Notes: generated from the sequence alone by a model not told the origin. A stretch of 55,414 nucleotides of DNA from a virus (IMGVR_UViG_3300016480_000208); one strand, 5' to 3'; numbered from the stretch's first letter, positions 11,229 through 49,899 are shown. Numbers and translations: made by a program.

Positions 11229-11591
11229 ATGCTTTTCTATTCTTATGAGAAACTATATCTCCTCTAGCGTGGAGATTCAGATAAAATCATGTATCTGTTC
11301 AAGCGACTAGCCTAGAACAAACCTGATGCACTGTCAACCTTATCGGGCAATAACTGGATAGTAAATCCAACCGTGTTAACTCTGACCAACTAGGATAGCG
11401 TTCAATGCGCAGAATTTTTGGGACTCCTCTCGTTTAGGCACTACGCAGAGTTTAAATGCACCGGCAAGACCGAACTTTCAGTTCGTGATTTGCCGAGTTG
11501 GATAACGTTATCAAGTTTAACCCCGTCACCCTTGTGGGTACTACGTGGAAATGAAATTGTTTTTCCAACAGAAAACCCACCCATCCTGTAA
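11229..11591 (+). CDS. T5-like conserved protein encoded upstream of D11 (TAG read-through)
   Basis: MLFYSYEKLYLL*RGDSDK matches T5 YEKLYLLARGNSD; 120 codons; TAA stop; missed by the ORF track. Confidence 0.85.
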
Positions 11592-11641
11592 TACCGCAAT
11601 TTGGTCATTTTATCCCTATCTTTGGGAACCGAGACATACAT

Positions 11642-12361
11642 ATGAGCATTAATAACTGGGGCACTGTAAAGGGCGAAAGCCAATCCGAAGGTCTGAACTA
11701 CGCAAAAATGGTTAGCGGCACTCCGCTTGTTTGCCGAATCGTATCTGGTGTGCGTCCTCGCTACCAATACTGGCTGACTAACTCCATTGGTCAGAAACTT
11801 CCGTTCGAGTCACTGTCTTTCAATCATGAAAATGAAAAGTGGATTCGTGGTGCCATTGACCCGGTTCGTGAAAAAGGCTTCACTGAATCTGATGGCAAAG
11901 GGGGCACTAAGCCTATCTCCTCCAAGCGTGCATATGCCTGTGTTATCATCAATCGTGCTACTAACCAGCTAGAAGCTCTTGACCTGAAGAAGTCCATCTT
12001 CGATGGCGTTATCAAGTTCATGCAAGAATCTGACGAAGGCTATGCCAACCCGTCCGAGTTTGAACTGGTTATCGACAAGACTGGTCAGAAGTGGAATGAA
12101 GTTAAGTATGCGGTTAACGTGATGGCTACCCTGAAAGCTAACCGCGACAAGGCGACTGTTAAAGCACTGCATGAACAGGACGAAGCCCTGTTGGCCAACC
12201 TGAAAGACCCTATGGAGTACTGGCCGCGTCAAACCGCTGATGAACAGCGTGCAGCTCTTGAGGAGTTCCTTGCTCGTACTGCTGATGAAGCCTCTGGTAA
12301 CGCTTCAGCAGGTGGTGCTGGTAATGGTGGTGCCGAAGAAGCAATGAGCGATCTGGACTAA
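11642..12361 (+). CDS. D11: D11-like putative ssDNA-binding protein
   Basis: RIVSGVRPRYQYWLTN, acidic tail EEAMSDLD; TAG-free. Confidence 0.9.
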   Translation: MSINNWGTVKGESQSEGLNYAKMVSGTPLVCRIVSGVRPRYQYWLTNSIGQKLPFESLSFNHENEKWIRGAIDPVREKGFTESDGKGGTKPISSKRAYACVIINRATNQLEALDLKKSIFDGVIKFMQESDEGYANPSEFELVIDKTGQKWNEVKYAVNVMATLKANRDKATVKALHEQDEALLANLKDPMEYWPRQTADEQRAALEEFLARTADEASGNASAGGAGNGGAEEAMSDLD

Positions 12362-12369
12362 TAAATTAA

Positions 12370-12394
12370 GGGGGCATATTGCCCCCTTTCTTTT
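12370..12394 (+). terminator. Rho-independent terminator
   Basis: GGGGGC-ATATT-GCCCCC-TTTCTTTT. Confidence 0.8.
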
Positions 12395-12403
12395 AGGAGA
12401 AAA

Positions 12404-13375
12404 ATGAGAGTACTATTCACGTAGGACTGGCATATTAAACTAGATGTGCCCAAAGTGCCAAACCACTGGCAGATAGAAAGATTCCACGCGATGGTTGATG
12501 AGTTAAATGCTGTTCCAGATGTAGACATGATAATTATTGGCGGAGATTTGCTAGACACAGCAAAGCCCACTTCCAAAGAAATAGAGCTCATGTTTGCGTT
12601 GCTAGCTAAGCTCAAGAAAAAGACAATCATATATAGTGGCAACCACGAAATGACTAATGACAAGGTTCTAGGCAAGTATAGTTGTTTGCACAACTTCTAG
12701 GACGAGATTAGTAGGGGCAACCCGCTAGTAGAGGTTGTATACTCCTATCGTAGTAATGAGTTTGATGTAGTAGGGTATGAAGAAATATCTAACAAAAAGC
12801 TGCACAAACCTCCAATGTCAAAACTATGCTTTACGCATGTTCGAGGAGAAATTCAACCACACGTAAAGTGGGAAATAGACCCCAAATTCTTTGAGCAATA
12901 CGAGCTTGTACTAACCGGAGACCTACATAGTCATGAAAATACTCAAGGAAAGTTTATCTACCCTGGTAGCCCTCTTACAACCTCTTTTCACAGAACCCGC
13001 ACTACTGGCAATGGCTATCTTATTGTTAATACTGATCTTCTAACTTGGGAGTGGTTCCCCCTAGCTCACCTACCACAGTTGATTCGTAAGACTGTTAGCT
13101 CTCTGGAAGAGATGGTAGAGACTAAGCATGATTGGACTATATATGAGGTAGAAACCAATGTGCTACAGTCTAAGGATATTAAGAAAACTTAGCTGTTGGA
13201 TAAAAAGATTGTATCTGGATTTGCCAAGGAGGCCGTACTAGACCTGCAAGGGACACCTATGTCCTAGGAAATGCAGCTGTTCCTGACAGATATTGCAAAG
13301 TTGCCTAAGCAAGACGTAGACAGGCTAGTAACGCAATTTAACGATTACTAGAGGAAATACGATGAAAATACTTGA
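12404..13375 (+). CDS. D12: Recombination nuclease D12 (SbcD/Mre11-like; TAG read-through)
   Basis: MRVLFT*DWHIKL, GGDLLD, SGNHE, LTGDLHSH, IYPGSP; 323 codons; TGA stop. Confidence 0.93.
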
Positions 13376-15233
13376 ACTAGGCTTTGAAAACATGCTGTCC
13401 TACAGGGACAAAACTTCTATTAACTTCTAGGAGCCAGGAGTTACTGTGGTTACTGGCCCTAATGGTGCCGGAAAGTCAAGTATACCTACTATATTGGAAG
13501 AGTTGCTGTATAACAAAAATAGCCACGGCCTAACTAAGTAGGAAATACCTCATAGGTATAGTGAATCACAACACTATAGCGGTTACGTTGTATTTGTGTA
13601 GGACAATGACACCTATAAAGTTGTTAAGACTGTTAAGTCCACATAGAAGTTGCAGCTATTTAAAAACGGTGAAGATGTAAGTTCCCATACCGCTACACAA
13701 ACGTATTAGTCTATCGAGCAAATTATTGGTCTGGACTTTAATACGTTCTCCAAACTGGTAAACCAGAGCATGGATTCTAGTCTGGACTTCCTCTCCGCTA
13801 CTGACTAGAAGCGTAAAGAGTTTCTGGTATCTCTGCAAAACTTAGAAAGGTACTACGAAGTCGAGGAGGCCATAAAGGCAGATAAGAAAAAGGTTGATGC
13901 TCAATTAGCTTAGGCAAGTGCTCGTGTAACTACTTAGCGAAAGTGGCTACAATCTTTGGATATCCCTCCGATTATGGATTTGGTGCCTGAACCAACTACC
14001 GAGGAAATTGATCTATGGAATGCCGAGATTTAGCAATGCAGGCAAGAAATGGGCGAAATCAAAACCCAGCTAAACTACGCAGATTCAAACAACCAACGTA
14101 TCTCTGCCCACAAATAGAAAGTGGCCAGTGCAGTTGCATAGGTCAATAGGGCTAAGCAAAACGCGATTCAAAAGTTTATTGACTGCGCCCAACCGCCGGA
14201 AACTTCTCAGCTACCAAAAATTACGTATGACCTTGGGTAGTTGTCTAGCCGTATGTCTGATATTAAGTAGAAGCACGCGAAACTAAAGGCAGAAGCCTAG
14301 GTGACTCAGTGCCCAACCTGTAAGTCCTCACTAGATAGAAGCTAGACTGTAAAACTAGCCAATGAGCTGGCCTAGGAATACAAACTATTAAAGACAGAAG
14401 CTGAACAGCTACAAGAGTCCAAGTAGTTCCTGGAAACCTACGAGCAGTATCAAAAAGCTCAAGAAGAAGTAGCACGTACTACGGAAGTACTAAATCAACT
14501 GGAATCTGAGGATGTTGGTACGCCCATTGACGTAGCAGCCCTACAAGAAGCCTACAAGAAATTAGAGGCCTAGATAAAGACACTAGAGGCCAATATCTCT
14601 CAAAGGAACAAAGAGGTATCTTAGGCCCGTCGTGCTAACGACGAGATTAAGGCTAGCAACGCTGCTCGCGAATCTAAGCTGGAACAGGCAAAGTAGTACA
14701 AAACCGACCTAGAAGAATCTGAGCAGGTAGAGTCGGAACTATCCTAGAAATCGTAGGACTTAGGACTTCTTTAGAAAAGTACTAAAGACCTTGTGGGTTA
14801 TAAGATAGAATCAAATATTAAAGTGTTTGAGTCACTCATCAACCATAATCTATAGGAGCTTAGTGATGGCCAGTTTGGCATTGGTTTCGAGCTTGATAAA
14901 ACAAAACTAGGTGTTGTAGTTTTCGACCACGGTACTAGAGTATCACTAAAAGCTCTTTCTAGTGGGGAAAAATCTCTGGTACATGTAGCGACATTACTAG
15001 CTATACGTGACACTATGGTGCACAGCTATGGGGAAGACCTAAACCTTCTCTTCTTGGACGAAGTTATTTCGGTCCTAGACCCAGAGAAGAAAGACGTTCT
15101 AGTAAGCCTGTTGCTTAAAATTACCAACATGTCTATATTCCTGGTTTCGCATGGATATAGCAATCAACTAACTAAATCGTTGTTAGTAGAAAAGCACCCC
15201 GAAGGCTATTCTACTATTGTTCAGGAGAGTTAA
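13362..15233 (+). CDS. D13: Recombination ATPase D13 (SbcC/Rad50-like; TAG read-through)
   Basis: Walker A GPNGAGKSS, SSHTATQTY, CPTC hook, LSSGEK signature, FLDEVISVLD; 623 codons. Confidence 0.93.
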
Positions 15234-15235
15234 TT

Positions 15236-15691
15236 TTGGGAAATCCAGCATAGGCCAAGGGCACACGTTTTGAGACGTAGATTGCCAAAAAGCTAACTGA
15301 ATTGACTGGAGTGAAATACGTGAGGGTGCCCCTGTCTGGGGCATCCCAATTTGCCAAAGGAGACCTTATGGTTGACTTGCGAGAGGGGAAGCTATCGAAC
15401 TTCTGTATCGAGTGTAAATCCTACGCAGATGACCAAATAACAGGGAATCTACTATACCCAGGCAAACAAGTATTTGACCAGTGGGCAGAACAAACCTTTC
15501 GTCAAGCAAAGGATATGAATGCAAAACCGATGCTAATTTTTAAGAAGGATCGTGGCAAGCCAATTGTTGCCATAGATTTTGAAGTAGATGGTGTGTAGAA
15601 CTCCATGAAAATTATACGACCTTCTGGTACACTTTATCTTTATTTGTTTGACGATCTTATGCCCGTGATTAAGGACACCTTATATAAATGA
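15236..15691 (+). CDS. D14: D14 Holliday-junction-resolvase-like nuclease (TTG start; TAG read-through)
   Basis: AKG..FE, RVPLSGA, KGDL, CIECKSY, KPMLIFKKDRG. Confidence 0.88.
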
Positions 15692-16614
15692 GTTATGAAG
15701 AAATTGATGACCTGGCCCCTAAACAAAATCTATGGGATAAAGCCTTGGCCAGAAAAAATGTTAATGGAAAAAATCTCCTAGTTGTGGATATGAACAACCT
15801 TGCGTATCGCTATAAACAACGCGGCCAAGTAGATTTCTAGGAAGATATGATTCGCACCGTAGAGTCTCTAGCAAAAAGCTACTCGGCACTACATATTGTG
15901 TGTGCGTGGGATCACCGCTCCTCTTCTTACCGTAAAAGCATTTATCCTGGATATAAGGGCGGGCGTAAAGAAAAGTACAAAGACCAAACCCCAGAGGAAA
16001 AGCTTCAAGCAGAAATGTTCTTTAACGGGTTAGATGAAGCATACCAGCACATGGTAATCCACGAAAAGAATACAGGCTTTGTTACCAATTTCAAATTTGA
16101 GTTTGTAGAAGCAGATGACCCCATTGCACTAACTGTACAAGTTATGGAACCATTTGTAGATCACATTTGGGTTATCTCCACTGACCAGGACTTCTGTCAG
16201 CTTATATCCAATAAGGTAAGTCTTTTTGCATATAAGTCTCGTAAAGAGTTTACCTTAGACACGATGTTTGAATATACTAACGCAGACTCAGGTGAGCAGC
16301 ACCTATTTATTAAGTGCCTGCAAGGTGACTCTGGAGACTCCGTTCCTGGGGTTCCAGATGTTGGCCCTAAGAGGGGCTATGGCCTAGCTAGAGAGTATGG
16401 AGATATCTTCTCCCTGATTGCGGCGCTACCTATTGAAGGCAAACAAAAATATATCGTGAAATTAAATGAGTTCGGGGCTAGCAACCTAATGCTGAACCTA
16501 GAGCTGATGGATTTAAAGAGCTACTGCGCTACAGCCATTGCATTCCCTAACCCTGCAAACCTAGACTACATGTTTGATAAGCTTGAGAAAATTAAGGAGA
16601 TCTATAATGTTTGA
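15688..16614 (+). CDS. D15: Flap endonuclease / 5'-3' exonuclease D15
   Basis: NLLVVDMNNL, DF*EDMIRTVESLAKSY, VEADD, QGDSGDSVPGVPDVGPKRG; one in-frame TAG. Confidence 0.95.
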
Positions 16615-17089
16615 TGAAGCACCTATGCCTTTGCTGTATTCCGTCGATAAACCAGAACTTGAGCCTGTAATTGGAAGTGCTCAAGCTGCTGGTATGGATT
16701 TGCGATGCAACCTGAATTTGCGCAAAGACCAACCATTCCTAATACTCAAGCCAAACGAAAATGTAACCTTCGGTACTGGTATTCGTGTTGTGATTCCAGA
16801 AGGGTGGGTAGGGTTAGTAATGCCACGTAGTGGTCTTGGGTTTAAATATGAAGTCATGTTGGCCAACACTACGGGGGTTATTGACTCTGATTATCGCGGG
16901 GAGATTATAGTTAAGTTAGTTAACCGAGGTAGGCAAGATATGGTTCTGGAGCAGTATGATAGGGTTGTTCAAATGGTAGTAGTACCCCATTGGTATATGA
17001 AACATATTCAGAAAGTAAGCCCAGAAGTTATTGCCTCCTATGGTACTGACCGTGGCGAGGGTGGTTTCGGACATACCGGAACTAAATAA
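16607..17089 (+). CDS. dut: dUTPase
   Basis: AAGMDL, PRSGLG, GVIDSDYRGEI, RGEGGFGHTG; TAG-free. Confidence 0.97.
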   Translation: MFDEAPMPLLYSVDKPELEPVIGSAQAAGMDLRCNLNLRKDQPFLILKPNENVTFGTGIRVVIPEGWVGLVMPRSGLGFKYEVMLANTTGVIDSDYRGEIIVKLVNRGRQDMVLEQYDRVVQMVVVPHWYMKHIQKVSPEVIASYGTDRGEGGFGHTGTK

Positions 17090-17119
17090 AAGAAAAGGAG
17101 CCCTAGGGCTCCTTTTTTG
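17090..17119. terminator. Bidirectional terminator between convergent genes
   Basis: AAAAGAAAAGGAGCC-CTAG-GGCTCCTTTTTT. Confidence 0.85.
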
Positions 17120-17659
17120 TTATACACGATTTTTGATCCAACCGTAGAGGAACCTTTCATTCTTGGGGTTCTTTTCAGAGATCTCCAAGTAATGAGTTCC
17201 TTGTGTGCAGCGGACGGCTAGCAGGAGAGTATCCTAGGAGCCACGCTACTTAATGAAAGCATTAAGCTATCCCAGAGTAGAGGGGCCAATCTTACCATCT
17301 ACAGGCTGGTCAGCGTAGTACTTCCCCCCATCATTAAACGCATTTAGCCAACGCTGGAGCATCTTAATAGATGTTGCGGTACCCTAGTTGATACCAAAGT
17401 CTATCAAGTCCTCCCCAAGCTTGGCGTCAATGTCATAAATCTGGTCTAGCTTAGGTTTCTTAATATACTCCCTAGCATAAATATCTTTGGCCGTCTGGAG
17501 CGGCAGAGCGCTCATATGGCCAGTATAGCCATTGGCACGAGCAACCTATTCAGTTATTCCGTATTTAGTCTAACCCCCACTATCGTAGTGGTCATTTCCA
17601 TACTAACCTTCAAGATTGACTACGTGATCAATAACTTTATCGTAGTCTGACTGCTTCAT
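17120..17659 (-). CDS. Glycoside hydrolase family 108 lysozyme (endolysin; 7 TAG)
   Basis: EG*Y..D..D.GG*TKYGITE*VARANGY, LQRWLN, DGKIGPSTL, C-terminal FLYGWIKNRV; 179 codons. Confidence 0.9.
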
Positions 17660-17707
17660 ATTATACACTCCTGCTATTACGCTAGTTGTTTAAAGCGGAC
17701 CAATTTG

Positions 17708-18190: not shown

Positions 18191-18221
18191 AGTTATAAAC
18201 GGGGATTTCTCCCCGCCTCCT

Positions 18222-21200
18222 TTAGTTAATTTTCGATTCGAGATATTTAACTCTGTCCGTCAGTTCCTTGATAGCTTCCACCAACAAAGCATTGACGCCA
18301 GAGTTGGAAATAGTCAGCACATTGAGGTTATCAACTGGGTTGACCACTTCGGTTACTGCCTCAGGAAGAACAAGTTGGACGTCCTGAGCAATCAATCCAA
18401 CTTCGTGAGTCGAATAGTCGTTGGACGATAGCGATTGCTTCTTGTCGTACGTGTACGCGCACAGTTGGCTGACCTTATCGAGAGCTCCGCTAATCTTCAC
18501 GAAGTTCTTTTTAAGTCTGCGATCTGATCGGATATTGACATCATTGAAGTTACCGTTCCCAACAACGTACAGACCACCGCCAGTATCAGCTTGGAATCGC
18601 AGAGCTACTTCCCCGCCACTTCCGTTAGATGTAGCAAGACGATAGTTTCCAGCTCCGTCCACATACGTACAGACTGCGTGCTTCCCTGGTATGTGATACT
18701 CGAGCATTGGGTTGGTGCCAGCGTTAACTTCAACACGACCTGTTAGTATGCTATCACCACGCTTGACCAACTCGTAAGGTCCTTTCTGAGTGCCGCCTTC
18801 TTGACCGCCAATCCACGCTTGCGTTCCAGCAAAGCTGATAGCCAAGTATCCGAAGTATCCTGCTGCGTTTCCGTGAGCTTGGTTGAAGAGATATGTCCAT
18901 CCAGTACCATTCGGAATGCCCGCAATGTTGGATCCTTGGAAGAATCCAGATTGACGACGGAGATTACAATCGCCCAAAACTGTGGAAATGCCAGTTCCGT
19001 AGGTACCTAAACCGTAACCACTAGGAGCAGCACCTACGTTAGCTGCCGTCAAACTAATATCGGCTGTACCGTCAAAGGAAACCCCTGCAATAGTACGAGC
19101 GGTTGCCAGTTTAGTAGCAGTTGCAGCATTGCCAGTAGTGCTTTGGTTACCTGCGATATTCACACCTGGAAGGTTGATATTCGCAGTGCCATCGAAAGCA
19201 ACACCACCTATAGTTCTAGCAGTTTCAAGCTTAGTAGCTGCCACGGCTGTTTCTCCAGTCTACAGAGCACCTACGTTTGCTGCAGTCAGGGTAATGTTAG
19301 CTGTACCATCAAAAGCAACGCCCGAGATAGTTCTAGCGGTTGCCAGCTTGGTAGCAGTAGCAGCATTACCAGTAGTACTCTGAGTACCTGTGGTATTCAC
19401 ACCTGGGAGGTTGATATTCGCGGTACCATCAAAAGCAACACCACCGATAGTACGGGCAGTTGCTAGCTTAGTAGCCGCAACTGCGGTACCGTCAGCCTAC
19501 AGAGCACCTACATTTGCTGCAGTCAGAGCAATGTTAGCTGTACCATCAAAAGCAACACCTGCTATAGTGCGAGCAGTTGCTAGCTTAGTGGCCGCAACTG
19601 CGGTACCGCCAGCCTACAGGGCACCTATGTCTGCTGCGGTGGGTTTATTAACTGGTGAATAAACCCGAGAGCCTGAGTCGTGAACCCTGTTGAAATACTC
19701 ATTGAATGAATAGCTGAGGGCCCCAGTATCGCCGTCATAGATATTCCCGCAACTCATTTTTACGGTGCCGGAGAGTATCGCGTCATTGCTTAGAACGAAA
19801 GTGCCGTCAGCAACGAACGTGGGCTTCCCGCCATCCGTGCCGCGATTGATGACGGAGACCCCAATATTGCCCCACATGCGCTTACCGCGAACCCATACGG
19901 TTGTACCTCCAGCCTCTTTTTTGACTGCAAGCTCGATCATGTCGGGAGCGCCATATTTCCTATTCACCGAAACGTGAAGAGATCCTACCGGGTCACCCGA
20001 ACCCTCGTAACGACTTACGGAGACATAGTACCGACCGCTGGAACCTGCATAGTTCTTATCAGCACTAACGATGATGTCAAAGGTGGTATCAACGAGGGCT
20101 GATGTTGTGTGCTCACAGAGCTTGTACCAGCGATAGAGATAATCACCACCGACGTTGGATTGGAGTGGTCCTAGACTCCTGAACCCTTCGCCAACGTAAA
20201 CCTCTCTGCTGGTTGCCCCAACATCTTCTGCAGTTGGCTTGTTCCCTTCATGGTAAATCTTGTGGGTAGCCCCATATTCGCCACTACGCCATGTGAGAGA
20301 GTTATCAGCCCCTATCGTGCCCCCAATCCACAGGCGTCCTCGCTCAGTGCCATCAGGTGCTCTCCACATAATGTCTGCCATGTCACTAGCAGATACCCCT
20401 ACAAGGTCCAGCAGCCCTGTAGCCCCTAACGTTCCAGATACAGTCCCGCCAGTAACAGGCAAAGCCCCGATTTCAGCCAGAGACCAGGTTACATTGCCGC
20501 CACCATTCACGGACTTGGCAGCATCGCCAATGGTCAAGGTGCGAGCGGTGCCCCAGTTCTCCGTGGTGATGTTGCCGGAGCCGTCAAAGTTGGTGCCGTT
20601 AATCTGGCGAGCCGTAGCCAGCTTGGTTGCCGTGGCCGCATTGCCAGCAAGAGCGCCCGTGAATGTCGGAGCAGTCACCCCAGCAGCCACGACCAGCCCT
20701 GTAGACTTTAGTGACATCCAATCGGTAGTGTTCGCCCCGCTTACACCCTGCCACTTGAAGTATTCATTACCGTTATCCCCGGTTTTGAACCACATGTAGC
20801 TGTCGGTGTCGCCGTCAGCGGTATTCTTGAAACCAATCTTCGCGTAGTCAGTATTGAAGCTCCAGCCCAGCTCGCTGGCGGCGTTGACGAACGTCAGCCC
20901 ACCAGTCATGGTGTCGCCAGTCTTGGCTACCGCACCAACATCTGCGGCAGAAAGAGTAATGTCGGACGTCAACGGCTGGGAGTTAATAGTACGGGCCTGC
21001 GGAACAGCACCGACATCCGCAGCAGTGGGTTTGTACCCTGCGTGATAAATCCTATGAAGAACCCCGGCAGACGTCTGAACACTGACGTCACCATCTTTTG
21101 CGTTGAAATTCAACTTGGCCGCAAAACTGCCGTCGCCAAACCTGACAGTATCTCCTGCGGAACCAATAACGTCCTTGCCGGCCACTCTAAAACCAGTAGG

Positions 21201-25798: not shown

Positions 25799-25799
25799 A

Positions 25800-38737: not shown

Positions 38738-39119
38738 ATCGGTCTACGTTGTGAACCACCTAGGACACCCAATCTTCAAAGGGCTTCCAGTTTTCGTATA
38801 GGAATAGGGCGTTTTCTGGGCAGAATTCTACTTCTTCTTCCAAGTCCTAGTCCTCCTCCACTAGCATCCACTCCTAAATGTGCTTCAACTTAAGGCCTTT
38901 CCAGCCCTTTACAGCCGATTTTACGAAGTTTTCAGAAAACTTTTCCTAACTAAATTCTTGGTGAACTTTGTCTCCGTCAACGACCGTTACATAACCACTT
39001 CTTAAGTTGCTGGTAGTCTATTTACGGCCTTGGTATGCCAGCTCAAACTCTACCCCTGGAAATAGCTCCCAATCAAAAGCTTTGATCTTTTCAACTTTTA
39101 CTTTGTTCTACAGTAACAT
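38715..39119 (-). CDS. Tail assembly chaperone (p139-like)
   Basis: AVKGWKGL, FCPENALFL, ends DRFRETKTA; 134 codons. Confidence 0.85.
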
Positions 39120-39120
39120 C

Positions 39121-40002: not shown

Positions 40003-40020
40003 TATCAGTATCCTTTAGAA

Positions 40021-40042
40021 TGTGAGGGCAGTAGCCCTCACA
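40021..40042 (-). terminator. Hairpin after the major tail gene
   Basis: TGTGAGGGC-AGTA-GCCCTCACA. Confidence 0.6.
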
Positions 40043-40047
40043 GATTA

Positions 40048-41187
40048 TTAAACTGTAGTGACAAATCCTGTTGTCAGGAATTGGTCAATCTTTGTTTTGT
40101 TGAGGTTCGGAGCCATACAGAAGCGAACTTCATCACCAGCAGCCATATCAGAACCTATACCCTTAAACTCAATGCTTAGACCCATAGCGTCTTCAGTCTG
40201 TAGTTCTGGAACTGATAGGTGGGCGGCTGGTAGGTGAACTACCACACCCGGGACCATATTGCTAGCGTAGTAGCCACCAATCATTAGCTGAATCTTAAAT
40301 GAGTTAACAGTGCCGGTCATTTGGGTTAGGAGCTTCCAAAGGTCTGAAGAACCATTGGCAACGTCATTCAAATAACACTCTAGACTACCACTAACATCCA
40401 AGCCTCCAGTAAAGTATCCAATAGGACGGTTTACACGGTTAAGGGTGCTTGGGGTCAGGTAGCTAATATTGTTAGAGATGGTAATGCTTGCTGCTGTAAT
40501 ACCAATCTGGTCGTAAGTCAGGCCACTAGGAGCGTTATTTACAACCTTCAATATAGAAAGCTTGTTCTTGATGTAAGAGTTTTGAAGTCTTACGAACTCA
40601 GCATCAGTGATACCAATAGTAGCTGGGTCAAACGGTTGAGCACCCAGAGGCTCAATCAGACCAGCGTTACCAGACCAAGTAACCCTAGCAATATCACTGA
40701 TATCTACGGAGATTTCAGCAGTATTGATCTAAAGGTCAGACGCTTTAAACCACAAAGAATCAACAAGCATATACAGGTGGGCTTTTGATAGCTCATGGTA
40801 CTGGCTATCCTTGAAAGAAACCACTTGGTTCATTTTGTCTTGGTATACACCCTTCTCTTTAGTGCCTGGGGCGTAAGGGGAACCAGAGGCCAAGCAATGC
40901 CACAGAATCTAGTCTGGGGTGCTTACGATAGCGCCAGCATCTGCTGCCTAGATAGGCTGAATGTAGTTAGAAAATGACCACTCACCTGGGTCAATAGCAT
41001 CTCTAAAACGACGAGACCCACGAGTAGGTTTGGGTCCTGCTTCATCTAGAGTTATATCAGTGTTAGTAGAAGTTTGACCGAAACTCAGGTCATCCCCTAC
41101 TAGGATTTCAAAGGTATTTGCCTTAGTGAACCCGGTGGTTACTGTGGAAACAAATACACGGGTATTACGAAGTAGTTGTACCTACAT
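40048..41187 (-). CDS. pb6: Major tail (tube) protein pb6, without the C-terminal Ig domain
   Basis: M*VQLLRNTRVFVSTV, EAGPKPTRGS, SYIKNKLSIL, YLTP..LNRVNRPIG; 379 codons. Confidence 0.95.
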
Positions 41188-41231
41188 TATTGATTATCTC
41201 CAGTATCTCCTAGACCTGTTGGTCAGAAAGA

Positions 41232-41708
41232 TCAAATTATTCTACCTTCTTCACAATATTTGAGGGTGATAGAAAGCTCACCAATGGCTATAGGTCTTAA
41301 AATACCTTCATCGGTTGTAAGTCCGCTTAAGTTGTCGATGGCTACATACCTAGTCTCGGTGGAACCATCAGGATTACTAACAGTATATTGTATACGTTCA
41401 GGCGTATCAAGAATTTTTTTAAGGTCTCTCAAGAGTAGCTGTATTTGTCGCTCTGAGTCATACTCGTCCTTGTAGTAGGCCCTAGCATACACCCTAAGGA
41501 GAGTCCAACGCACACCGCCAGGCTGGTATTCATATTCCTCAGGCCCCTAAGTGATAGTAATCATAGGGAAAGAGGTTACCTCCTGGGCTAAGTAAGATTT
41601 GGTTTGTACGTTGTTGTAGATGTTATGAAAATACTTAACACCTACGTTATCCTAGCTTAGTTCGGTTTTTATCTTAGTGGCTAGGGCTTCGCAAATATCT
41701 ACTGACAT
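41232..41708 (-). CDS. Tail terminator protein (p142-like)
   Basis: FPMITIT*GPE, TTDEGILRPIAIGE. Confidence 0.85.
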
Positions 41709-42454
41709 TATCTCCTCCAATGTTGTTTGATATCAATCTTGTATCTAGTCAGACCTAACTGGGCTGCCTATTTCTACAGCTATTCGGTGATTAGTTTTTG
41801 TGGGTTCCTCTAGGTACTGGATAGTCCTCTGTACCTAGACACCTAGGGGTCGAACACTGAGTAAGGACGAACCATGTAAGTGAAAAACACGGATAAAGTG
41901 TTATTCTTAAGAACTAGTGGTTTCAAGTCCACACTGTACTATAGCCTACCAGTACGGTATACTAGACCAGATGTACCAGGGCTTTTCATCTCAGCGACCA
42001 CATTGGATATAGTTGCCAACTTAAGGGCGTTCCTAAGATTTACCTCAGATACGAACCTACCCCTACCATCACGTAGTCCCTAGTCAGACTTTTGACCACG
42101 ATACCTACTATACTTGCCGATATGGGTTGATATTATCTATTTTTTAGTTACAGCTCTAGACTATGGCTACATACCCATAGCCTAAAGAATTCTATTCATG
42201 ACGTCTAAGTCTCCAGAAATGATAGCCTCCTAAACATTGTCTACCAACTTTTCAGTTACGGTAGGGTTATCTTTAACTGGAGTTTTGAAGTTAAAGCTCA
42301 CACTAGCTATTGATTCTTTTGGGTCTCTAGAGTCACCTAGTTTAATGGTTTCCGTTATTCTAAGGTTACCACGTTCTTTGGCTAGATCGTCGTTATACTC
42401 TTCTGGAACCTCTAGCTGCTTCACTAGCTTATCTGTAAAGAATTTACTCTACAT
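41708..42454 (-). CDS. Tail completion protein (p143-like)
   Basis: YRTGRL*YS, TYMVRPYSVFDP*VS, *RNPQKLITE*L*K*A (T5: ARNPQRLIGEAIAKAA). Confidence 0.9.
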
Positions 42455-42456
42455 AA

Positions 42457-42966
42457 TTACTTCCTATATAGGTCTAGGATAGATTTTACATGGGAGGGAA
42501 GGTAAGATACCTTATCAAAGTTTATAGCCTCACCACCCTAGGAAATCTAGGACTTGTATTCTTGCTTGTGGTAAAACTTCACCAACTCCATTACTGCGAC
42601 CTTAAGAGCTGCTAGGCCTGGAATATTCTAATTGGCAGCTGTGGTGCACACTAGCTTTATAGCACCAGACACCTCCTTAGATAATACCACCATATATCCA
42701 CGCATGACAATACCTGTCACATCGGTCAGGTTGCCATTTACGTATACTTCGGTTACCTAAGAAATACCTTCTTGGTCAATAATCATCCTGTTGTTGGGTA
42801 GTGGCAGATAGTCCTGTACTTCTACTGTGCCCTATGTAACCTCTTTTATGTTGGTATAGTCCTACACAAAGGAGTTCTACATATCAAGTAGGTTAGTCAG
42901 TTTCTACTCATCTTGCGGAGTAGTGATAGACATATACTACTTTAGTTCTGATAATGTTGCAAACAT
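42457..42966 (-). CDS. Head completion / head-tail connector protein (p144-like)
   Basis: LKVAVMELVKFYHKQEYK, GGEAINF, LPSHVKSILDLYR; 169 codons. Confidence 0.85.
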
Positions 42967-42982
42967 TTTACCTCCTTTAGAT

Positions 42983-43017
42983 AAAAAGAAAGGGAGAGAG
43001 ATTTAATCTCTCTCCCT
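42983..43017 (-). terminator. Terminator after the major capsid gene
   Basis: AGGGAGAGAGAT-TTA-ATCTCTCTCCCT with a U-tract. Confidence 0.8.
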
Positions 43018-43031
43018 ATTAGGAGTCACTA

Positions 43032-44414
43032 TTAAGCAGCAGCGTACTTAGCAGACACAACACCGTTCGGGAACATGCGTTGCAGGTTCAGACGCTGAGT
43101 TGCGTAGTAAGCATCACGCTGCTTACCAGCTTGACGTTCTTTCTCAACAGTCAGTTGACGCTGACGCGGAACTACGAAGTTGTCGGTGTAAACGATAACT
43201 GCATACTCGGCACCCACTGCCTTAGCCGGGAAGTACTCGGAGATAACTACTGGCATACCGTAGATACGACCAACTTGACCTTGAAGCTTAACAGAAGCTT
43301 CACCAACTTGGTTAACATCTTGCCACTCAGGATCTTCCAGCAGGTCGTAGTAAGCGTCCAGGGAGACAATCAGAGTCAGCTTGTTAACGTTGTAGCCGTA
43401 ACGGCCAAGGTGACGACGCAGCTTGGAGATTCCCAGTGCAGTAACCTTAACAGAACCGTCAGCCTTAGCTGGGGTAGTAATAGCGCGGCTATCGTCCGCA
43501 GCGAACTTCAGCAGGCCCTTCGGAACGCCAGAACCAGTACCGTTCATGAATGCATTCTCAATCGCCTTAGCGTGAGATTCAATCAGGTGACGACGCAGGA
43601 TAGGCAGCAGAGGAAGAACAGCGTCTTCTTCAGTTTCGTCAGTCATGAAGATCTTAGCAGCCAGTTTGAAGGTGCTGAAGGTCATTTCACCCAGGGTAAC
43701 TTCGATTTCGTTACCAACAGTTGCGTCGGTACCAAAGGTGGAGTTATCTACCCAGTTGGCAGTACCAGCTTCTGGGTCAACCAGCATGGTCAGGGTCTTG
43801 GAGTTCATCGGCAATTCGGTGAACAGGTTACCTACAACCAGGGCCTTCTGGATATCACGCAGCAAGTTGGTGGAGAAAGTGGTTTCGTAGTCTTCGCTAG
43901 AAACTTGGATAGAAGAAGAACCGTTAACGGCCTTCAGGTGGCTCTAACCGTACTTGGTTTCAAACAGGCTCTTCTCAGTCAGATAAGACAGGAATACCAC
44001 GTTTTCAACTTCACGGGACAAGTCCTCAGACTTAGCAAAACGCAGAGCACCTACGTTCATGGCTGGTAGGCCGGTACGAGCAGCAACCAGTTGGTTGATT
44101 TCGCCAGCTTGTGCCTTAACTTGCTCCTGCATAGCTTCCAGAGCGTCGGCGAATGCCTTGCCGCTTTCTTGCAGCTTAGATTCCAGAGTCTTGATGGTTT
44201 CGTTAGCAGCTTCTAGAGACTTACGCTGTTCTCCAGTGGCACCTTCGATAAGAGCCTTGATACGCTCTTGTTCAGCCTTCTCTTTAAGAGCCTTTTCCTC
44301 GGCTTCCTTCTACGCTTTCTGAGTATCGTTCAGAGTCTTCAGAGCGGTAGAGATATCGTCAAGACCAAGCTGGGCGCGCAGAGCGGTAATATCAATGTTT
44401 TGATTCTCGTTCAT
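43032..44414 (-). CDS. Major capsid protein (HK97 fold, T5 pb8-like; 2 TAG)
   Basis: KLAAKIFMTDETEEDA, DAYYDLLED.EWQDV, ERQAGKQRDAYY; 460 codons. Confidence 0.96.
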
Positions 44415-45052
44415 TTCACAGATTTCCTTAAGCACCCAAGCTGACGAGCTAGTTTTACAATTTCTGGCTCAACAGGGGCAATTTGTGTATTTTGTTTTTT
44501 GGGAGTAGGTTCTTTAATCAACTTAGCTTTCAACTCTTCACGGTTTTGAACACCAAAAGATTTTGCCAAGTCAAACATAGAGTCTTGGTTACAAGGGACA
44601 GAAACTACAGAAAGCTCTGTCATTTCTATCTCAGTCATAAGAAAAACATCAACATCAGGTTTATATTCCCAGTCTAGGAGACGGAATCCAATGGAGAATG
44701 CTTTTAGGATATTCTTCTTAATCTACTGGAATACAGCTGGGATTGTATTGGAAATCCTCACTCGAACAAAGAGACCTTCGTCTTTTACTTCTAAAGACTC
44801 AACTACTCCAATAGGCATGGAGTGGTTATGGTACGCCAGTACAATGGGGTTCTTTCTATAGTTAGAAAGCTAAGACTCTTTTTCCCACGTACTACGCGGA
44901 ATTAAATCCCCGGCCCTATCAACGGTCGTGGTATTAGCCATACCCTCAATTATGATATCGTCTTCATCACCACCTTCTGGTGCGGCTTTGATTACGGAGT
45001 TAATAGAGAAGTCTATAAGACCCTCTGCCCCCTTGAAGCGTTCATCACTCAT
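44411..45052 (-). CDS. Prohead protease (pb11-like)
   Basis: IEGMANTTTVDRAGD, *LSNYRKNPIVL, KAFSIGF, ELSVVSVPCNQDS. Confidence 0.93.
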
Positions 45053-45335
45053 CTTTCTTCACCATTACTTTAGGAGGTGGAGTAGGCTTCACAGGTTTGG
45101 CTGTATCTGGAATAGCCTTAGTAGGCTGTACAGCTTCACGTGTTTCTGCATACTTCGTAAACTCTTCTTCCAGTTTCTGGAAGGCTTTACCAAGAGTAGG
45201 CTCACAGTAAATGCCTTTCAGCATCGCTGGAGTTACAATGGATTCAGTCTATCTAGTAGCGAAGAATAGGTGACGTGGAGGGAGCTTTTTACCGAAAAGC
45301 TTAACCAGCTATTCAAGTTTGCTTTGCTCAATCAT
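45045..45335 (-). CDS. Small protein between portal and protease (position of T5 pb10), Pro-rich C-terminus
   Basis: 96 codons; ATGA overlaps on both sides; 2 TAG. Confidence 0.7.
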
Positions 45336-46573
45336 TTGTCATCCTCGTTTGCTGGCCTGCCACCTTCTTGTCCTGAAACCCCAGTACCAGAACCCTAGAT
45401 ATTCTAAGGTACCCTGATTTGAGTTGTTTCTGGCAGTTTCAGTGCGGAAAGCCCTAACATAAGTCTACCTTCGTCTGCCGTAATCAACCCGTTATTCACA
45501 AGCTACGTTACACGGGTAGCTTCCTTCTGAGTATCAGGTGAGAGAGCAAATACGTCCGAAGTATCTAGTTCGAAGCTATAACCGAAAAACGCAGAAAGCT
45601 AACCGGTAAATTTCTTTAGGTTTGGTAGAATTGTTAAACTAAACATCAGGTCAATATTTGGCCTAATGTTAGCATTGTTCCCACCCTCAAGAAGGATAGG
45701 CGGAACTCCCATCTATGTACAGATTGCCTCGTTGTGGGCCTTCTTATCTTCATTGATACCTAACTGACCCATATCGATTTGGGCAGTGTTTTTAGCTTTT
45801 AACCCCGCATCTAAGATAATTGCAGAGTTCATAAACTTACCATTCTTGGTATTAAAGTTTACGTTTATGGTATCTAGGAGTTTGTCCTTAAAAGACTTAC
45901 TTAGTACAGATTCTGACTCCAAGATAAGACCAAGCATAGTACCATTATCTAGGTAGCGCTCCTTGAAAGAGCTTAGCTTGTCTTTTCTTATGATATCATT
46001 TTCCGCAGCCTTATAGCGCGAGTTCGCGCTGATGGCTGATGCCCCTACCCCGTGAGTGTAAGAGTTATCCTTAATAAAGATAACTTCATCAGTACTTAAA
46101 CGACGGTCTCCAAACATGTAGTATTCCACAATATTATTACTGCCGGAGTATACTTTGACTTCTGTTTCTGGAATGTGGTAAAGGGCAGTGCCGTCCCATA
46201 CCGCAAAAGCTCTTCCACTCATCCAGTAGTCGGTAAGTAGGAGTCTCCAGAAGGAGTTAGCATCTTGGAATAGGTTTGGCTTAATCTCTAGTAGCTTAGC
46301 CAGGGTAGCCTTGCTTGCAGTACTATCTTTCCGATTCATCTCAGATAGACCCTTGGCTAGGGGGGTTACGTTAAGCTTTTTGCCAACCGTAATTTTTACC
46401 TCAGCCTAGCTATCAACTAGGATATTTACGCACCTATTGAAAACTGGGTCGAGCTTATAGGAGTCTGCCGCAGTTCTCTTGTTAGGGGTAGCGGTTTCGC
46501 CCATAGGCTCTTTATCTTTGATATCAGACTGCACTGGATTCTTTTTGGTGAATAGCCAGCTTTTAATATTCAT
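45332..46573 (-). CDS. Portal protein (pb7-like)
   Basis: GGNNANIRPN, LVNNGLIT..EGR, IRVP*NI*GSGTGVSGQEGGRP; 413 codons. Confidence 0.95.
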
Positions 46574-46584
46574 TCGGTGTCTCC

Positions 46585-47010
46585 TTAGCACTTAAATCTG
46601 GAGAAGCGACCCTAAGAAGCCTGGGTATGGGAGCCCGACTACTTATCGTGTTGCTTCTGAACCCAATTACGTTGGGCATCTGCTGTATTAAGGAGAGGAG
46701 TCACACCATAGATTCTGTGCAACTCTTTGTGGTGTCCCTAGCAAAGAGTTACTGTGTCATCAACTAGTTCGTACCACCGCTCCTTATAAATCTCTTCCCG
46801 GATTGAAACACACTCGTCTTCCGTTTCCGGCTAGGGCAAGTTATTTGCAGTGATAAACTAGTCCACAACTAGTTTAACAGAGTGATAGTGGTGTAACTCC
46901 AATTCTTGTTCAGAGGAACAAATGGCACAGCATTCCTACTTTTTGTAGTTCTACTTAATACCATCGCGTACGTACTTAACGACGTCACGCTTCTTAGTGT
47001 TAGCAGCCAT
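46585..47010 (-). CDS. T5-type nicking HNH endonuclease
   Basis: RDGIK, CCAICSS..ELELHHYHS, VTLC*GHH..LHRIY. Confidence 0.88.
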
Positions 47011-47035
47011 GGGCTCTCCTCATTTCTATATAAAC

Positions 47036-47064
47036 ATGATATGCTATAGGTTTGTATTTGTAAA
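47036..47064 (-). promoter_or_regulatory. sigma70-type promoter candidate
   Basis: TTTACA-N17-TATCAT on the minus strand. Confidence 0.5.
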
Positions 47065-47097
47065 GATACGTTTAAAAGTTCACTGGCACAGACTAAA

Positions 47098-47499
47098 TTA
47101 GAAGGTGTACTTCCAGTGAAGGGTTAACACACCTAACTTACTTGAGGGGATCCAACCTATAATAGAAGTAATGGGCCCTGTTTTGTATCCCAACTCAAAC
47201 TGTCCAGTAGGTAACAAATCATAATTAATGGGTGTGTCGCCATACCCAGTAACCGCCCCAACTTGTACACCCTAATAAACGTCATCAAACCACCAACCAT
47301 AGCTCTTAGTAACCATTAAGGAAGGCTCATAGTAAGAGTTGTTGAACTATACCACGCTCCAGCCACCATGTTCAAAACCAACAGCCAGATTACGCTCGTT
47401 AAGGTGTCGGGTCTCGTTCTTGTATGTATACTCTCTATCACCGATATGGTAGGATAAGCCCCCTAAAATTAGGGAGCTCTACAAAGTCAACTATAGCAT
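47098..47499 (-). CDS. Exported beta-rich (outer-membrane-barrel-like) hypothetical protein
   Basis: Signal-like N-terminus ML*LTL*SSLILGGLSYH, NERNLAVG, GAVTGYG, aromatic C-terminal F. Confidence 0.65.
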
Positions 47500-47502
47500 A
47501 AA

Positions 47503-48795
47503 TCACCTTACGAAAGTATAAATTGCATATCTAAATGCGTCCGCAACGTGAGAGTACTCATCATGTAGGGGTCTTGGATCACGGCTGGGGTCGATTTCAG
47601 GATCCCACTGATAGTTACGCAGCATCATAATATGCTTAGTACAGTTGTCTAGAACGAATAGTTTGTCCTGCTGGAATAGGGATTGGATGTACTCGATACT
47701 ATCAAGAGTAGATTTCTTCTACTTGATACTCTAAATATCATGCAACATCTACAAGTCAGCAGCAAACTGCGCGGCAGCGTAGTCCACAAATACCATGTCA
47801 ATCCCATACTTGTCCATTAGCTTAGTGAAGTTCTCAGCATGCTGCTAAGTAGTAAGTCGAGCCTATTCGTACTCATCACATACATAGAATATATCCTTCT
47901 AGCCGTGGTACAGCAGACAGCTACCAGCAGTACTATCGGTATAACCGTGGTCAATACCCATAATGAATTCGAAGGTACCATCGTACTAGGGGAGCTATGG
48001 AACAACGTGACGCTCCTGGTCGAAGCAGGTAAAAATCTGAGTTTCAAATACGTCGAAGTCAGCCTCGTATTCTTGTCTGAACTTCTAAGGAGAACAAGTA
48101 CGACGAGCTTCTTCAATAACAGATTCTGGAACGCGAGGGTTGTCTCGGTAAGTACCGTGTATAGATGCCCAACGACTAAGCTCTTTGTCAGTACCCCGGT
48201 CATAGAAGGTACGGAACCAGTTATCCCCACGTGGGGTACTAATGAATAGCTACTTACTATTCATTTTATCAAGCATCGGACCAATCTGTACGTCAAAGGT
48301 ATCACCACCACGTCTATCAATCTACGCTTCTTCATAGATTACTAGGTCATAAGAACGTCCTACTACTGAGTCTGCGCGGTTTACGGAACCTAGTTTAAAA
48401 AAGGAACCATTCTCAAGTTCGATTTCTTTATCCTTAGCGTTCTCTTTAATAGTCTCTACACCTGAGCCTTTAAGAAGCTTCTTAATTTCGTCCCACCCGA
48501 TGTTCGCGATAGAGTAGTTAGGCTACATTACCAGCACTGAGGCACCTGGCTCTAGGAGCTTTAGAAACTAGCAAGTGTAAGCAATAAAGGACTTACCTAC
48601 ACGTCTGGAAACGCAGCAAGTAAGATAACGACAACGCGGGTCGTTAAGCTAATTAATAATACCTATCTGTACTTTGTTAGGCTCTACACCTATTACGTCC
48701 AGGTAGTTCTCTACTGGGAGCTAGAAGAAGCGTTCATCGACTGGGATATTCTTATTTAGCTCCTAATAAGTTATCCAATCTCGTGTGACCTTCAT
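47503..48795 (-). CDS. Terminase large subunit (about 16 TAG)
   Basis: SRRVGKSF, GRSYDLVIYEEA*, LFISTPRG, GIDHGY, HDEYSHVADAFRYAIY; 430 codons. Confidence 0.96.
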
Positions 48796-49256
48796 TACCT
48801 CTTACCTTTAATAATCTTATCAAGCAACTAATTGTAGTTCTCACCACCATTGATTTGAATGTTGGTTGTGTTGTTATTTTGGATAAGATTTGTGGTCTCC
48901 TAGAGTTTCATTGACATCTGGAGTTCTTGCATCTTCATTTTATGAACCTTCTCTAGAAGTGTTACTATATCCATATCTGGAAGCATGCCTGTTTCTTCCA
49001 TTTCTTCAATCTTGGCATTTATAATTTCGTCTAGTAGCCCAAACATACGGTCTCGGTTTCTAAAACCGGCCTCCGCAAACTTTTGGTCTAGCAACGCTTT
49101 TACCGGACGCTGTGACAGAAACGCTGATACGTTTTCGATAGGCATATTTAACTATACGGCTGTATCAGACATATTGCATCCGTTAGACAAATATGAGTTC
49201 ATTACGGTAATAGCCTCAGGAGAAACCTCCAGAGGTACAAGTTCTTTAGACTACAT
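48795..49256 (-). CDS. Terminase small subunit
   Basis: EAGFRNRDRMFGLLD.II..KIEEMEETG, NY.*LLDKI; TAATG overlap with TerL. Confidence 0.9.
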
Positions 49257-49301
49257 GGTGTGTTCCTCCTAGCCACATACGGGCAACTTTCTATACTTAA
49301 G

Positions 49302-49330
49302 AGTATACCGTGGCCTCTTGTGAAGTACAA
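49302..49330 (-). promoter_or_regulatory. Promoter for the late operon
   Basis: TTGTAC-N17-TATACT on the minus strand. Confidence 0.7.
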
Positions 49331-49355
49331 CTCATTTTTTATTTTAGCAAAGCGA

Positions 49356-49384
49356 TTGCACTTAAGTGGGTTTCGTGGTATTAT
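49356..49384 (+). promoter_or_regulatory. Divergent promoter for the HNH-AP2 gene
   Basis: TTGCAC-N17-TATTAT. Confidence 0.7.
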
Positions 49385-49404
49385 ATAGTTTTGGAGGAAC
49401 TTCT

Positions 49405-49899
49405 ATGAACTTTAGTGATTATCTGTATTATGATGAGACTTCCCCTAGTTGTCTAAGGTGGAAGGTATAGCGTGGAAATCTTAAGTAGGGCGACGTTGCC
49501 GGTGGTATACATAAAAAAGAGAATAAGTGGAGGGTGTGTGTCGGAGGTACCAAGTACTATGCTCATAGGATAGTATGGTCGCTCCACAACCCAGGATAGG
49601 AAGTGCCTAAGTTTATTGACCATAAAGACCGTAACGGGTTAAACAATGTGTATAGCAATCTTAGATAGGCTACTCATTAGCAAAATATGTACAACCGTGA
49701 GTCTTCGTGCAGTGCCGTGAAGTTTCGTGGGGTTTTTCATCAATCGGAAAACTCGTGGCAGTAGCGTATACAGGTGGAGGGGCGTAAAGTTTCTCTAGGT
49801 TCGTACAATAACCCCGAGGACTAGGCAAGGTAGTATGATGAGTAGGCTAAGAAGTATTTTGGTGAGTTTTAGGTGCTTAATTTCCCTTCCGGCGCTTAA
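49405..49899 (+). mobile_element. HNH homing endonuclease with a C-terminal AP2 domain (10 TAG in 164 codons)
   Basis: DETSPSCLRWK, AHRIVW, IDHKDRNGLNN..SNLR, WQ*RI...LGSY..PED*AR*YDE*AKKYFGEF*VLNFP; GGAGG RBS. Confidence 0.92.

Follow-up and report, generated by a model that had tools for sequence, protein, structure and literature searches.

The viral sequence IMGVR_UViG_3300016480_000208, a stretch of 55,414 nucleotides referred to here as the window, represents about half of the genome of a T5-like Aeromonas phage. In this phage, the amber codon UAG (TAG in the DNA) is with virtual certainty a sense codon, and its sequence features point very strongly to alanine as the amino acid. Column tallies of aligned homologues, Pfam scores, the codons that replace TAG within the genus and the identity elements of a phage tRNA with a CUA anticodon, tRNA(CUA), all favor alanine, as had been proposed in an original prediction made from the sequence alone. 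The best explanation of the whole, which we hold with considerable confidence, is that UAG is read as sense, most likely as alanine, by a phage tRNA(CUA) that is charged by the alanyl-tRNA synthetase (AlaRS) of the host, and that the pre-early genes are kept free of TAG.

The window belongs to the genus Shenzhenvirus of the family Demerecviridae, as seen from its T5-type gene content and gene order and its close nucleotide identity to named members. Over positions 40000–50000 the DNA is 96.7% identical to phage AhP_Mru1 (Mru1), 90–92% identical to AhSzq-1 and AhSzw-1 and about 79% identical to TS3 and Akh-2. All five of these cultured relatives are classified in this genus in the database records, and the PHROG assignments agree.

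Read in the standard bacterial code (code 11), positions 11229–49899 are fragmented, and open reading frames (ORFs) of at least 100 amino acids in the real frames cover only about one quarter of this region. With TAG read as sense, 31 genes occupy about 97% of it and none of these frames contains an internal TAA or TGA. Here, 459 in-frame TAG codons are present in 29 of the 31 genes, which corresponds to 3.6% of the 12,693 codons or about one TAG per 28 codons. In the conserved genes, the homologues from standard-code T5-like references run across the TAGs. The 37 curated genes of the window are terminated by TAA (25) or TGA (12) and never by TAG, and no gene of the window needs an in-frame TGA. 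In the genes for virion, packaging, lysis and recombination, TAG is now the second most used alanine-type codon. Furthermore, the TAG positions are shared with independently isolated relatives, namely 280 of 328 with Mru1, 229 of 287 with AhSzw-1 and 119 of 272 with TS3, which rules out an assembly artefact. In Mru1, TS3 and Akh-2, the three relatives searched for it, the gene of the terminase large subunit (TerL) likewise contains TAG, with 14–17 occurrences per phage.

The original prediction had counted about 25 genes as fragmented under code 11 and whole with TAG as sense, and 29 genes are now seen to carry TAG. All 17 of the motif strings it quoted, including the one from the AP2 domain, are present exactly as written. 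Its lengths for TerL (430 codons), pb3 (955) and D13 (623) are right, whereas the portal has 419 codons from its first GTG and not 413. The description of the recoded genes as middle and late was too narrow: TAG spares the pre-early block (A1, A2 and a PNK/dmp-like gene) and a conserved early subset.

Gene identities were assigned with PHROGs and Pfam. The map starts with a partial tRNA island of 17 tRNAs, followed by the early genes for NMN adenylyltransferase, PnuC and an SSB-like protein. SbcD/D12, SbcC/D13, RusA, flap exonuclease, dUTPase and a GH108 endolysin come next. The virion module is complete and comprises the L-shaped fibre, a pb4-like fibre, pb3, the distal tail protein Dit, tape measure, chaperones, tail tube, terminator, completion protein, adaptor, capsid, protease and portal. 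The remainder consists of both terminase subunits, the HNH-AP2 gene and the pre-early genes A1 and A2-like. The TAG-containing genes of the recoded region are:

11229–11591, plus strand: phrog_4258 gene, 120 codons, 3 TAG, the first TAG-containing gene of the region
12404–13375, plus strand: SbcD/D12, 323 codons, 5 TAG; the TAG of FT[TAG]DWH is alanine in 5/5 references
13362–15233, plus strand: SbcC/D13, 623 codons, 24 TAG
15236–17089, plus strand: RusA-like (3 TAG), flap exonuclease D15 (1 TAG) and dUTPase (1 TAG)
17120–17668, minus strand: endolysin with GH108 and PG_binding_3, 182 codons, 7 TAG
18222–25535, minus strand: L-shaped tail fibre, single frame, 2437 codons, 105 TAG
25800–29954, minus strand: straight-fibre (pb4-like) protein, 1384 codons, 76 TAG
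29951–32818, minus strand: baseplate hub pb3, 955 codons, 35 TAG
32818–33423, minus strand: distal tail protein, 201 codons, 7 TAG
33546–38237, minus strand: tape measure protein, 1563 codons, 80 TAG
38318–40002, minus strand: two tail assembly chaperone ORFs (5 and 6 TAG) and a p140-like tail protein (293 codons, 16 TAG)
40048–41187, minus strand: tail tube pb6, 379 codons, 4 TAG (12% of alanine-type codons), codon 2 being TAG
41232–42966, minus strand: tail terminator (2 TAG), tail completion (13 TAG) and head-tail adaptor (9 TAG)
43032–44435, minus strand: major capsid protein, 467 codons, 2 TAG (4% of alanine-type codons)
44411–46591, minus strand: prohead protease (2 TAG), orf96 (2 TAG) and portal (419 codons, 6 TAG)
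46585–47499, minus strand: phrog_3497 (7 TAG) and phrog_3600 (4 TAG) genes
47503–49286, minus strand: terminase large subunit (430 codons, 16 TAG) and small subunit (163 codons, 5 TAG)
49366–49899, plus strand: HNH-AP2 homing-endonuclease-like gene, 177 codons, 10 TAG, five of them at alanine-type positions of AP2

Outside of this region, orf141 (2932–3357, plus strand) has a lone TAG at codon 131 of 141 and is the only early-region ORF ending in TAG under code 11. In Mru1, both this TAG and the 10 codons that follow are conserved; they can also be aligned in TS3, and the codon is probably read as sense as well. Small TAG-bearing ORFs in 1–11228 and 52900–55414 were left uncounted because of an overlap with tRNAs, an antisense position to better genes or a location in repeats.

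The amino acid was addressed by a Codetta-like tally, in which the frames of the window with X at TAG were compared by tblastn to five T5-like genomes without in-frame stops (PSTCR5, PR1, Achelous and two uncultured IMG/VR viral genomes). Among the 982 residues aligned to 236 TAG columns, alanine is the most frequent with 25.1%, followed by serine (13.0%), threonine (7.0%), glutamate (6.5%), lysine (5.5%), asparagine (5.1%) and glutamine (4.9%). True GCN columns display alanine at 37.5%, serine at 9.9% and glycine and threonine at 5.6% each, and the TAG-column profile is nearer to this profile than to that of any other amino acid. If one residue per column is assumed, the log-likelihood is best for alanine, 43 units worse for serine and 95 units worse for glutamine; 1996 of 2000 bootstraps were won by alanine and 4 by serine. 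In a control, the same classifier correctly assigned 55 of 57 sense codons, the two misses being the single-codon amino acids methionine and tryptophan, for which the leave-one-out procedure removes the profile.

The conserved columns give the same picture. In the 24 TAG columns with at least four agreeing references, the residue is alanine in 15, serine in five and lysine, phenylalanine, glycine and glutamine in one each. With one dissenting reference allowed, 49 columns are available and alanine is found in 27, serine in six and glutamine in three. Counted from the side of the invariant columns, TAG is used at 15/130 alanine columns, at 1/49 glutamine columns and at none of the glutamate, leucine, tyrosine or tryptophan columns. 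Compared with the T5-like homologues, the TAG columns are best described by alanine and are not dominated by glutamine, in line with the claim made at the outset.

Within the genus, the non-TAG partners of TAG codons (versus TS3) encode alanine 84 times, serine 50 times and glutamine 32 times. GCN codons are the commonest partners, yet an exchange of TAG and GCN needs at least two base changes. Across 37 genes the TAG frequency falls with the GCN frequency (rho −0.45, p 0.005), and no other amino acid correlates negatively. In the tail tube, a PDB alignment with T5 pb6 places the four TAGs at variable positions, which are occupied by serine, lysine, tyrosine and glutamine in T5. As a separate observation, the second codon of the tail tube gene (40048–41187, minus strand) is TAG and corresponds to the serine of T5 pb6; alanine or serine at this position would permit removal of the initiator methionine and glutamine would not.

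Pfam profiles are not derived from phage relatives and were used as a further measure. Here, the HNH-AP2 gene was translated in ten ways, with TAG as ten different residues. The AP2 model scores 31.4 bits with alanine, 23.1 with threonine, 20.3 with serine and 14.3 with leucine, and it is not reported at all if TAG is translated as glutamine, glutamate, lysine, tyrosine, tryptophan or glycine. The five TAGs pointed out before in this domain do sit at its alanine-type positions. For TerL, the Terminase_6N model is likewise highest with alanine (50.6 bits), followed by threonine (48.5), glutamine (47.8) and serine (47.5).

The putative decoding tRNA is found in the relatives, in Mru1 at L001:41234–41308 directly 5′ of tRNA-Ala(UGC). 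This tRNA(CUA) is 75 nucleotides long, presents CUA in a normal anticodon loop of 7 bases that includes U33 and A37, and has a 5-base variable loop. Its acceptor stem GGGGAUG/CAUCUCC contains G1:C72, G2:C71, G3:U70 and G4:C69, and the discriminator base is A73. It shows the identity marks of a tRNA-Ala that were examined, namely G3:U70, A73, the start G1-G2-G3-G4 and the lack of a long variable arm; G3 and U70 are invariant if tRNA(CUA) is aligned with six tRNA-Ala genes. The gene is 100% identical in AhSzq-1, AhSzw-1, Akh-2, TS3 and Mru1, even where the structural genes are only about 79% identical. In a comparison with 198 tRNAs from seven T5-like genomes, made with the anticodon arm masked, the three nearest neighbours are tRNA-Ala(UGC) genes, one each from PSTCR5, PR1 and Achelous. 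Thus, tRNA(CUA) represents an alanine tRNA body carrying a new anticodon arm. Outside of the genus, the best full-length matches in phage database records are mostly annotated as tRNA-Ala and some lie under no tRNA annotation, and a comparison with E. coli genomes gave only weak matches to plasmid tRNAs (Arg and Asn).

AlaRS recognizes the G3:U70 pair and not the anticodon. An E. coli tRNA-Ala with a CUA anticodon reportedly inserts alanine, a result attributed to Hou and Schimmel and to McClain and Foss, both in 1988. An AlaRS gene (PF01411) was not found in Mru1 or TS3, and with no such enzyme encoded by these relatives the charging of tRNA(CUA) would have to be performed by the host enzyme.

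Two further tRNA loci were observed. The Providencia phage PSTCR5, which uses the standard code, carries two tRNA-Ala(UGC) genes at L049:6878–7146, of which one is more closely related to the Shenzhenvirus tRNA(CUA) than any other tRNA compared. The suppressor tRNA could plausibly have started from a duplicated tRNA-Ala. In the window itself, a tRNA-like gene lies at 135–210 (plus strand) right after tRNA-Met and scores 33.9 bits with the Rfam tRNA model. Its anticodon loop varies between close relatives: ARAGORN gives the two bases "cg" here, "tca" (opal-suppressor type) for AhP_Mru1, "ca" for AhSzw-1 and the four bases "tcgg" for TS3. The gene is otherwise conserved, has no CCA end and contains a mismatched pair close to the upper end of its acceptor stem.

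The use of TAG is far from even between the genes. In the low-copy proteins (p140-like, completion, adaptor, pb3, pb4-like, TerL and HNH-AP2) TAG makes up 40–60% of the alanine-type codons, in contrast to the capsid (4%), tail tube (12%), protease (14%) and portal (17%). This scarcity in the most abundant virion proteins suggests that UAG is decoded more slowly or in a leakier way than GCN. Eight genes, with 224 GCN codons together, contain no TAG. Seven of these (A1, A2-like, the PNK/dmp-like orf229, NMN adenylyltransferase, PnuC, phrog_1491 and the SSB-like gene) are TAG-free also in Mru1, AhSzw-1 and TS3 at amino-acid identities of 63–99% (63–90% for TS3), so that a gene set compatible with the standard code exists here and in three relatives. 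The eighth, phrog_11523, carries TAG in those relatives that have it. The seven conserved genes are located as follows:

7522–10880, plus strand: NMN adenylyltransferase, PnuC-like transporter and phrog_1491, early genes assigned by PHROGs, TAG-free
11642–12361, plus strand: SSB-like gene, 239 codons, TAG-free, 25 GCN
50034–52841, minus strand: pre-early TAG-free block with the PNK/dmp-like orf229, the A1 DNA-transfer protein (521 codons, 53 GCN) and an A2-like DNA-binding protein (145 codons)

Within this set, 7522–9257 (plus strand) encodes an NAD salvage pair of an NMN adenylyltransferase of 340 amino acids and a PnuC-like transporter of 238 amino acids.

In T5, A1 and A2 are pre-early genes on the first-step-transfer DNA. 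The pre-early genes of the window would then be TAG-free because their translation would have to precede the arrival of the tRNA gene in the cell.

Taken together, the following mechanism can be proposed. The tRNA island would carry, as it does in the relatives, a tRNA(CUA) that shares its acceptor stem, D arm and T arm with the tRNA-Ala of standard-code T5-like phages. The host AlaRS, by recognizing G3:U70 and A73 and ignoring the anticodon, would charge it with alanine. TAG has risen to second place among the alanine-type codons of the genes for virion, packaging, lysis and recombination and has been dropped as terminator, and the pre-early genes together with a conserved early subset are without TAG. 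In a T5-type two-step injection, the pre-early genes would be translated before the tRNA gene enters and is expressed. Since release factor 1 (RF1) of the host would compete for UAG, decoding is probably slower and leakier, and TAG would stay rare in abundant virion proteins.

Two loci bear on the flow of genes across the border between the codes. The L-shaped fibre (18222–25535) starts with a phage_tail_N domain, the N-terminal domain of prophage tail fibres, at residues 1–136 and ends with a Peptidase_S74 chaperone at residues 2337–2395. Its N-terminal part consists of TAG-dense Ala/Ser/Thr repeats with a 315-bp period, and inside the fibre the following block is located:

19614–22022, minus strand: TAG-free block within the L-shaped fibre, 802 codons

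The block is bordered on both sides by the motif GAL-TAG-AG.TAVAATKLATARTI. A reading of this 802-codon ORF as a separate gene ending in TAG was considered and rejected, as it lies inside the continuous fibre frame and the flanking TAGs belong to the repeated motif. Since the N-terminal domain and the C-terminal chaperone lie at the ends of one frame, the TAGs bounding the block are located inside the protein. Residues 323–631 of the block are 74–78% identical to gp36, the small distal tail fibre subunit, of the T4-like Aeromonas phages phiAS4, AhMtk13a, AS-gz and 60AhydR15PP, which are annotated under the standard code and without apparent recoding. No database record covers at least 80% of the block, and no listed Shenzhenvirus record has it in full. 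The block thus looks like a recently imported receptor-binding module which has not yet acquired TAG. The HNH-AP2 gene (HNH_3 plus AP2), with its 10 TAGs, is missing in AhSzw-1 and TS3, and only a paralogue of 57% identity is present in Mru1. In this case, a mobile gene itself uses the recoded code.

These observations can be joined into a wider reading, which is put forward tentatively and which we rate as somewhat below an even chance. Here, the phage would run a timed two-code program tied to the T5-type two-step injection, with pre-early genes in the standard code and UAG as alanine after the second-step transfer. A phage factor would neutralize or overwhelm the host RF1; within this two-code reading it must do so, as proteins with 76–105 UAGs need near-complete read-through. 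The result would be a one-way barrier, in which standard-code DNA such as the TAG-free fibre block can be imported and recoded genes are useless outside of the group.

Several points weigh against the alanine assignment and the mechanism proposed for it. The tRNA(CUA) is not among the 17 tRNAs of the window, which starts inside the tRNA island just downstream of the place that the gene has in the relatives, where it was seen. The TAG columns match alanine less well (25%) than the GCN columns do (37.5%), and serine is a clear second, from which it follows that TAG sits mostly at variable positions. In composition, the alanine deficit relative to the reference phages is 0.68% compared to a TAG frequency of 3.0%, and the deficits of aspartate and isoleucine are larger; this weak signal is probably due to the higher G+C content of the window. 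Amber-suppressor tRNAs can be partly mischarged by glutaminyl-tRNA synthetase (GlnRS) via U35, and some insertion of glutamine is possible. The demand on translation is high, since with 105 UAGs a fibre yield of 10% is reached only if the read-through exceeds about 97.8% per codon. A release-factor gene was not found by a PF00472 search of Mru1 and TS3, nor was another device directed against RF1. The base after TAG has no clear bias in comparison to that after GCN codons, so there is no sign of a special anti-termination context. Finally, the injection-order account of the TAG-free genes would be carried over from the biology of T5.

UAG might also be ambiguous, being read partly as alanine and partly terminated by RF1, with the TAG density acting mainly to throttle the amount or timing of a protein and not as a clean reassignment. 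This is possible, albeit rather unlikely. It would fit the low TAG share in capsid, tail tube, protease and portal compared to the low-copy proteins, the failure to find a release-factor gene in the relatives and the conservation of TAG-free pre-early and some early genes. However, the essential fibres and the tape measure protein with their 76–105 TAGs could not be made if termination at UAG were appreciable, and TAG is never used as terminator, as a full reassignment predicts. Ambiguity is in any case a refinement of the alanine assignment and no alternative to it.

Glutamine, the meaning of TAG in code 15 as used by crAss-like and other recoded gut phages and the assignment given to the genus by prodigal-gv, is very improbable here. 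On its side, CAG and CAA are the second or third commonest TAG partners between close relatives, a CUA anticodon can attract GlnRS, and the fibre repeats are plausible with glutamine too. The excess of CAG partners, which are frequent between the closest relatives, is nevertheless expected, since CAG and TAG differ by a single transition. The Ala/Ser/Thr repeats of the fibre look plausible by eye with either residue and were not used as evidence. The acceptor end of tRNA(CUA), with G1:C72, G3:U70 and A73, is not of the glutamine type, and the AP2 profile, the invariant columns and the likelihood given above all speak against glutamine. AhSzq-1 and AhSzw-1 have been listed under table 15 (Cook et al., 2024), but this label is a software default and no test of the amino acid.

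Serine has still less to recommend it. It is the second residue at the TAG columns and occupies five of the 24 conserved ones, and TCG is one step away from TAG. But besides its lower likelihood, its four bootstraps and its AP2 score of 20.3 versus 31.4 bits, the tRNA(CUA) with its 75 nucleotides and 5-nucleotide variable loop is without the long extra arm needed by seryl-tRNA synthetase, and the serine signal is explained by the interchange of alanine and serine, as true GCN columns hold 9.9% serine as well. Errors of sequencing or assembly as the source of the TAGs, or a pseudogene nature of the genes, have a negligible probability, because five independently isolated and sequenced phages (from China, Korea, India and one without recorded country) share the pattern and most TAG positions, the frames are interrupted by TAG only and never by TAA or TGA, and the relatives are viable cultured isolates.

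Some further features of the window were noticed. Upstream of the tape measure gene, at 38318–39119 (minus strand), the two chaperone ORFs 38715–39119 and 38318–38779 overlap in the layout usual for a programmed frameshift. Beside the pre-early genes, about 2.2 kb at 52900–55080 contain no convincing ORF in either code and no PHROG or Pfam match. Beyond the A1/A2 block, positions 55129–55363 hold a tandem array with 16- and 32-bp periods and about 14 copies of the unit CTAGACGTCTAGATGG, which creates false "TAG-rich ORFs" on both strands. This array might be the counterpart of the T5 region rich in repeats that lies close to the first-step-transfer boundary.

The reassignment of stop codons has been described to occur "sporadically" in Demerecviridae, and Supplementary Table S1 of this study has the entries "table 15" mentioned above (Cook et al., 2024; PMC11210395). 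In the paper on phage Akh-2, the recoding went unnoticed. The claim of a new phage genetic code is hence to be narrowed: the recoding of TAG in this genus was already published, and what is new is the amino acid. Full-text searches of the literature found no report of TAG as alanine in a phage. In phages whose code differs from that of the host, only glutamine for TAG and tryptophan for TGA were observed in one study (Borges et al.).

If this is correct, a stop codon would stand for alanine in a phage for the first time. The meanings used by recoded phages would extend beyond glutamine and tryptophan, which have been explained by weaknesses of GlnRS and tryptophanyl-tRNA synthetase, and AlaRS would offer a third, very simple route. 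There are also practical aspects. The public records of the genus are badly fragmented (377 features for AhP_Mru1), and table 15 places glutamine where alanine most likely belongs. Since Aeromonas phages of this genus have been proposed for therapy in aquaculture, correct proteomes matter there. Unlike the recoded gut phages, the system is tractable, with cultured virulent phages, a cultivable host and the well-studied T5 group.

In comparison to known systems, the finding would be a case of phage stop-codon recoding via a phage suppressor tRNA, with a new amino acid and in a cultured, tractable phage group. The nearest parallel are the TAG-recoded phages with a Sup-CTA tRNA, i.e., crAss-like phages, Lak phages and others from the gut with code 15 (Borges et al., 2021/2022; Peters et al., 2022; Cook et al., 2024). 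Both infect a standard-code host and carry in-frame TAG, and the phage-encoded tRNA(CUA) of the gut phages has its counterpart in the five relatives of the window; in both, the genes needed first are kept compatible with the standard code and the virion and lysis genes are recoded. In contrast to these uncultured gut lineages with glutamine, alanine is the likely meaning here, the genus is cultured, virulent and T5-like with a gammaproteobacterial host, and no phage release factor or synthetase gene was found in the relatives searched. The TAG-free A1 and A2 genes would represent a T5-specific form of the model in which early genes are written in the standard code (Borges et al.).

UAG as alanine itself is known from the mitochondria of the green algae Hydrodictyaceae and Neochloris (Hayashi-Ishimaru, 1996; Noutahi et al., 2019, PMC6551751). 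There, tRNA(CUA) also derives from tRNA-Ala, G3:U70 and A73 are kept and most changes are found in the anticodon arm. These mitochondria, however, have their own translation system without a rival code, whereas here a virus would impose the meaning in a cell that has RF1 and reads UAG as stop.

The laboratory amber suppressors made from E. coli tRNA-Ala share the alanine body, the CUA anticodon and the charging via G3:U70. They are engineered and read single nonsense codons, in contrast to a natural phage gene serving hundreds of codons. A further comparison is provided by T5 and the Demerecviridae PSTCR5, PR1 and Vibrio phage Achelous, which have the tRNA island, D12–D15, fibres, pb3, tape measure, tail tube, capsid, portal, terminase and A1/A2 in common with the window at 40–55% amino-acid identity. 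In PSTCR5, PR1 and Achelous, however, the homologous genes contain no in-frame TAG, and these phages possess tRNA-Ala(UGC) but no tRNA(CUA).

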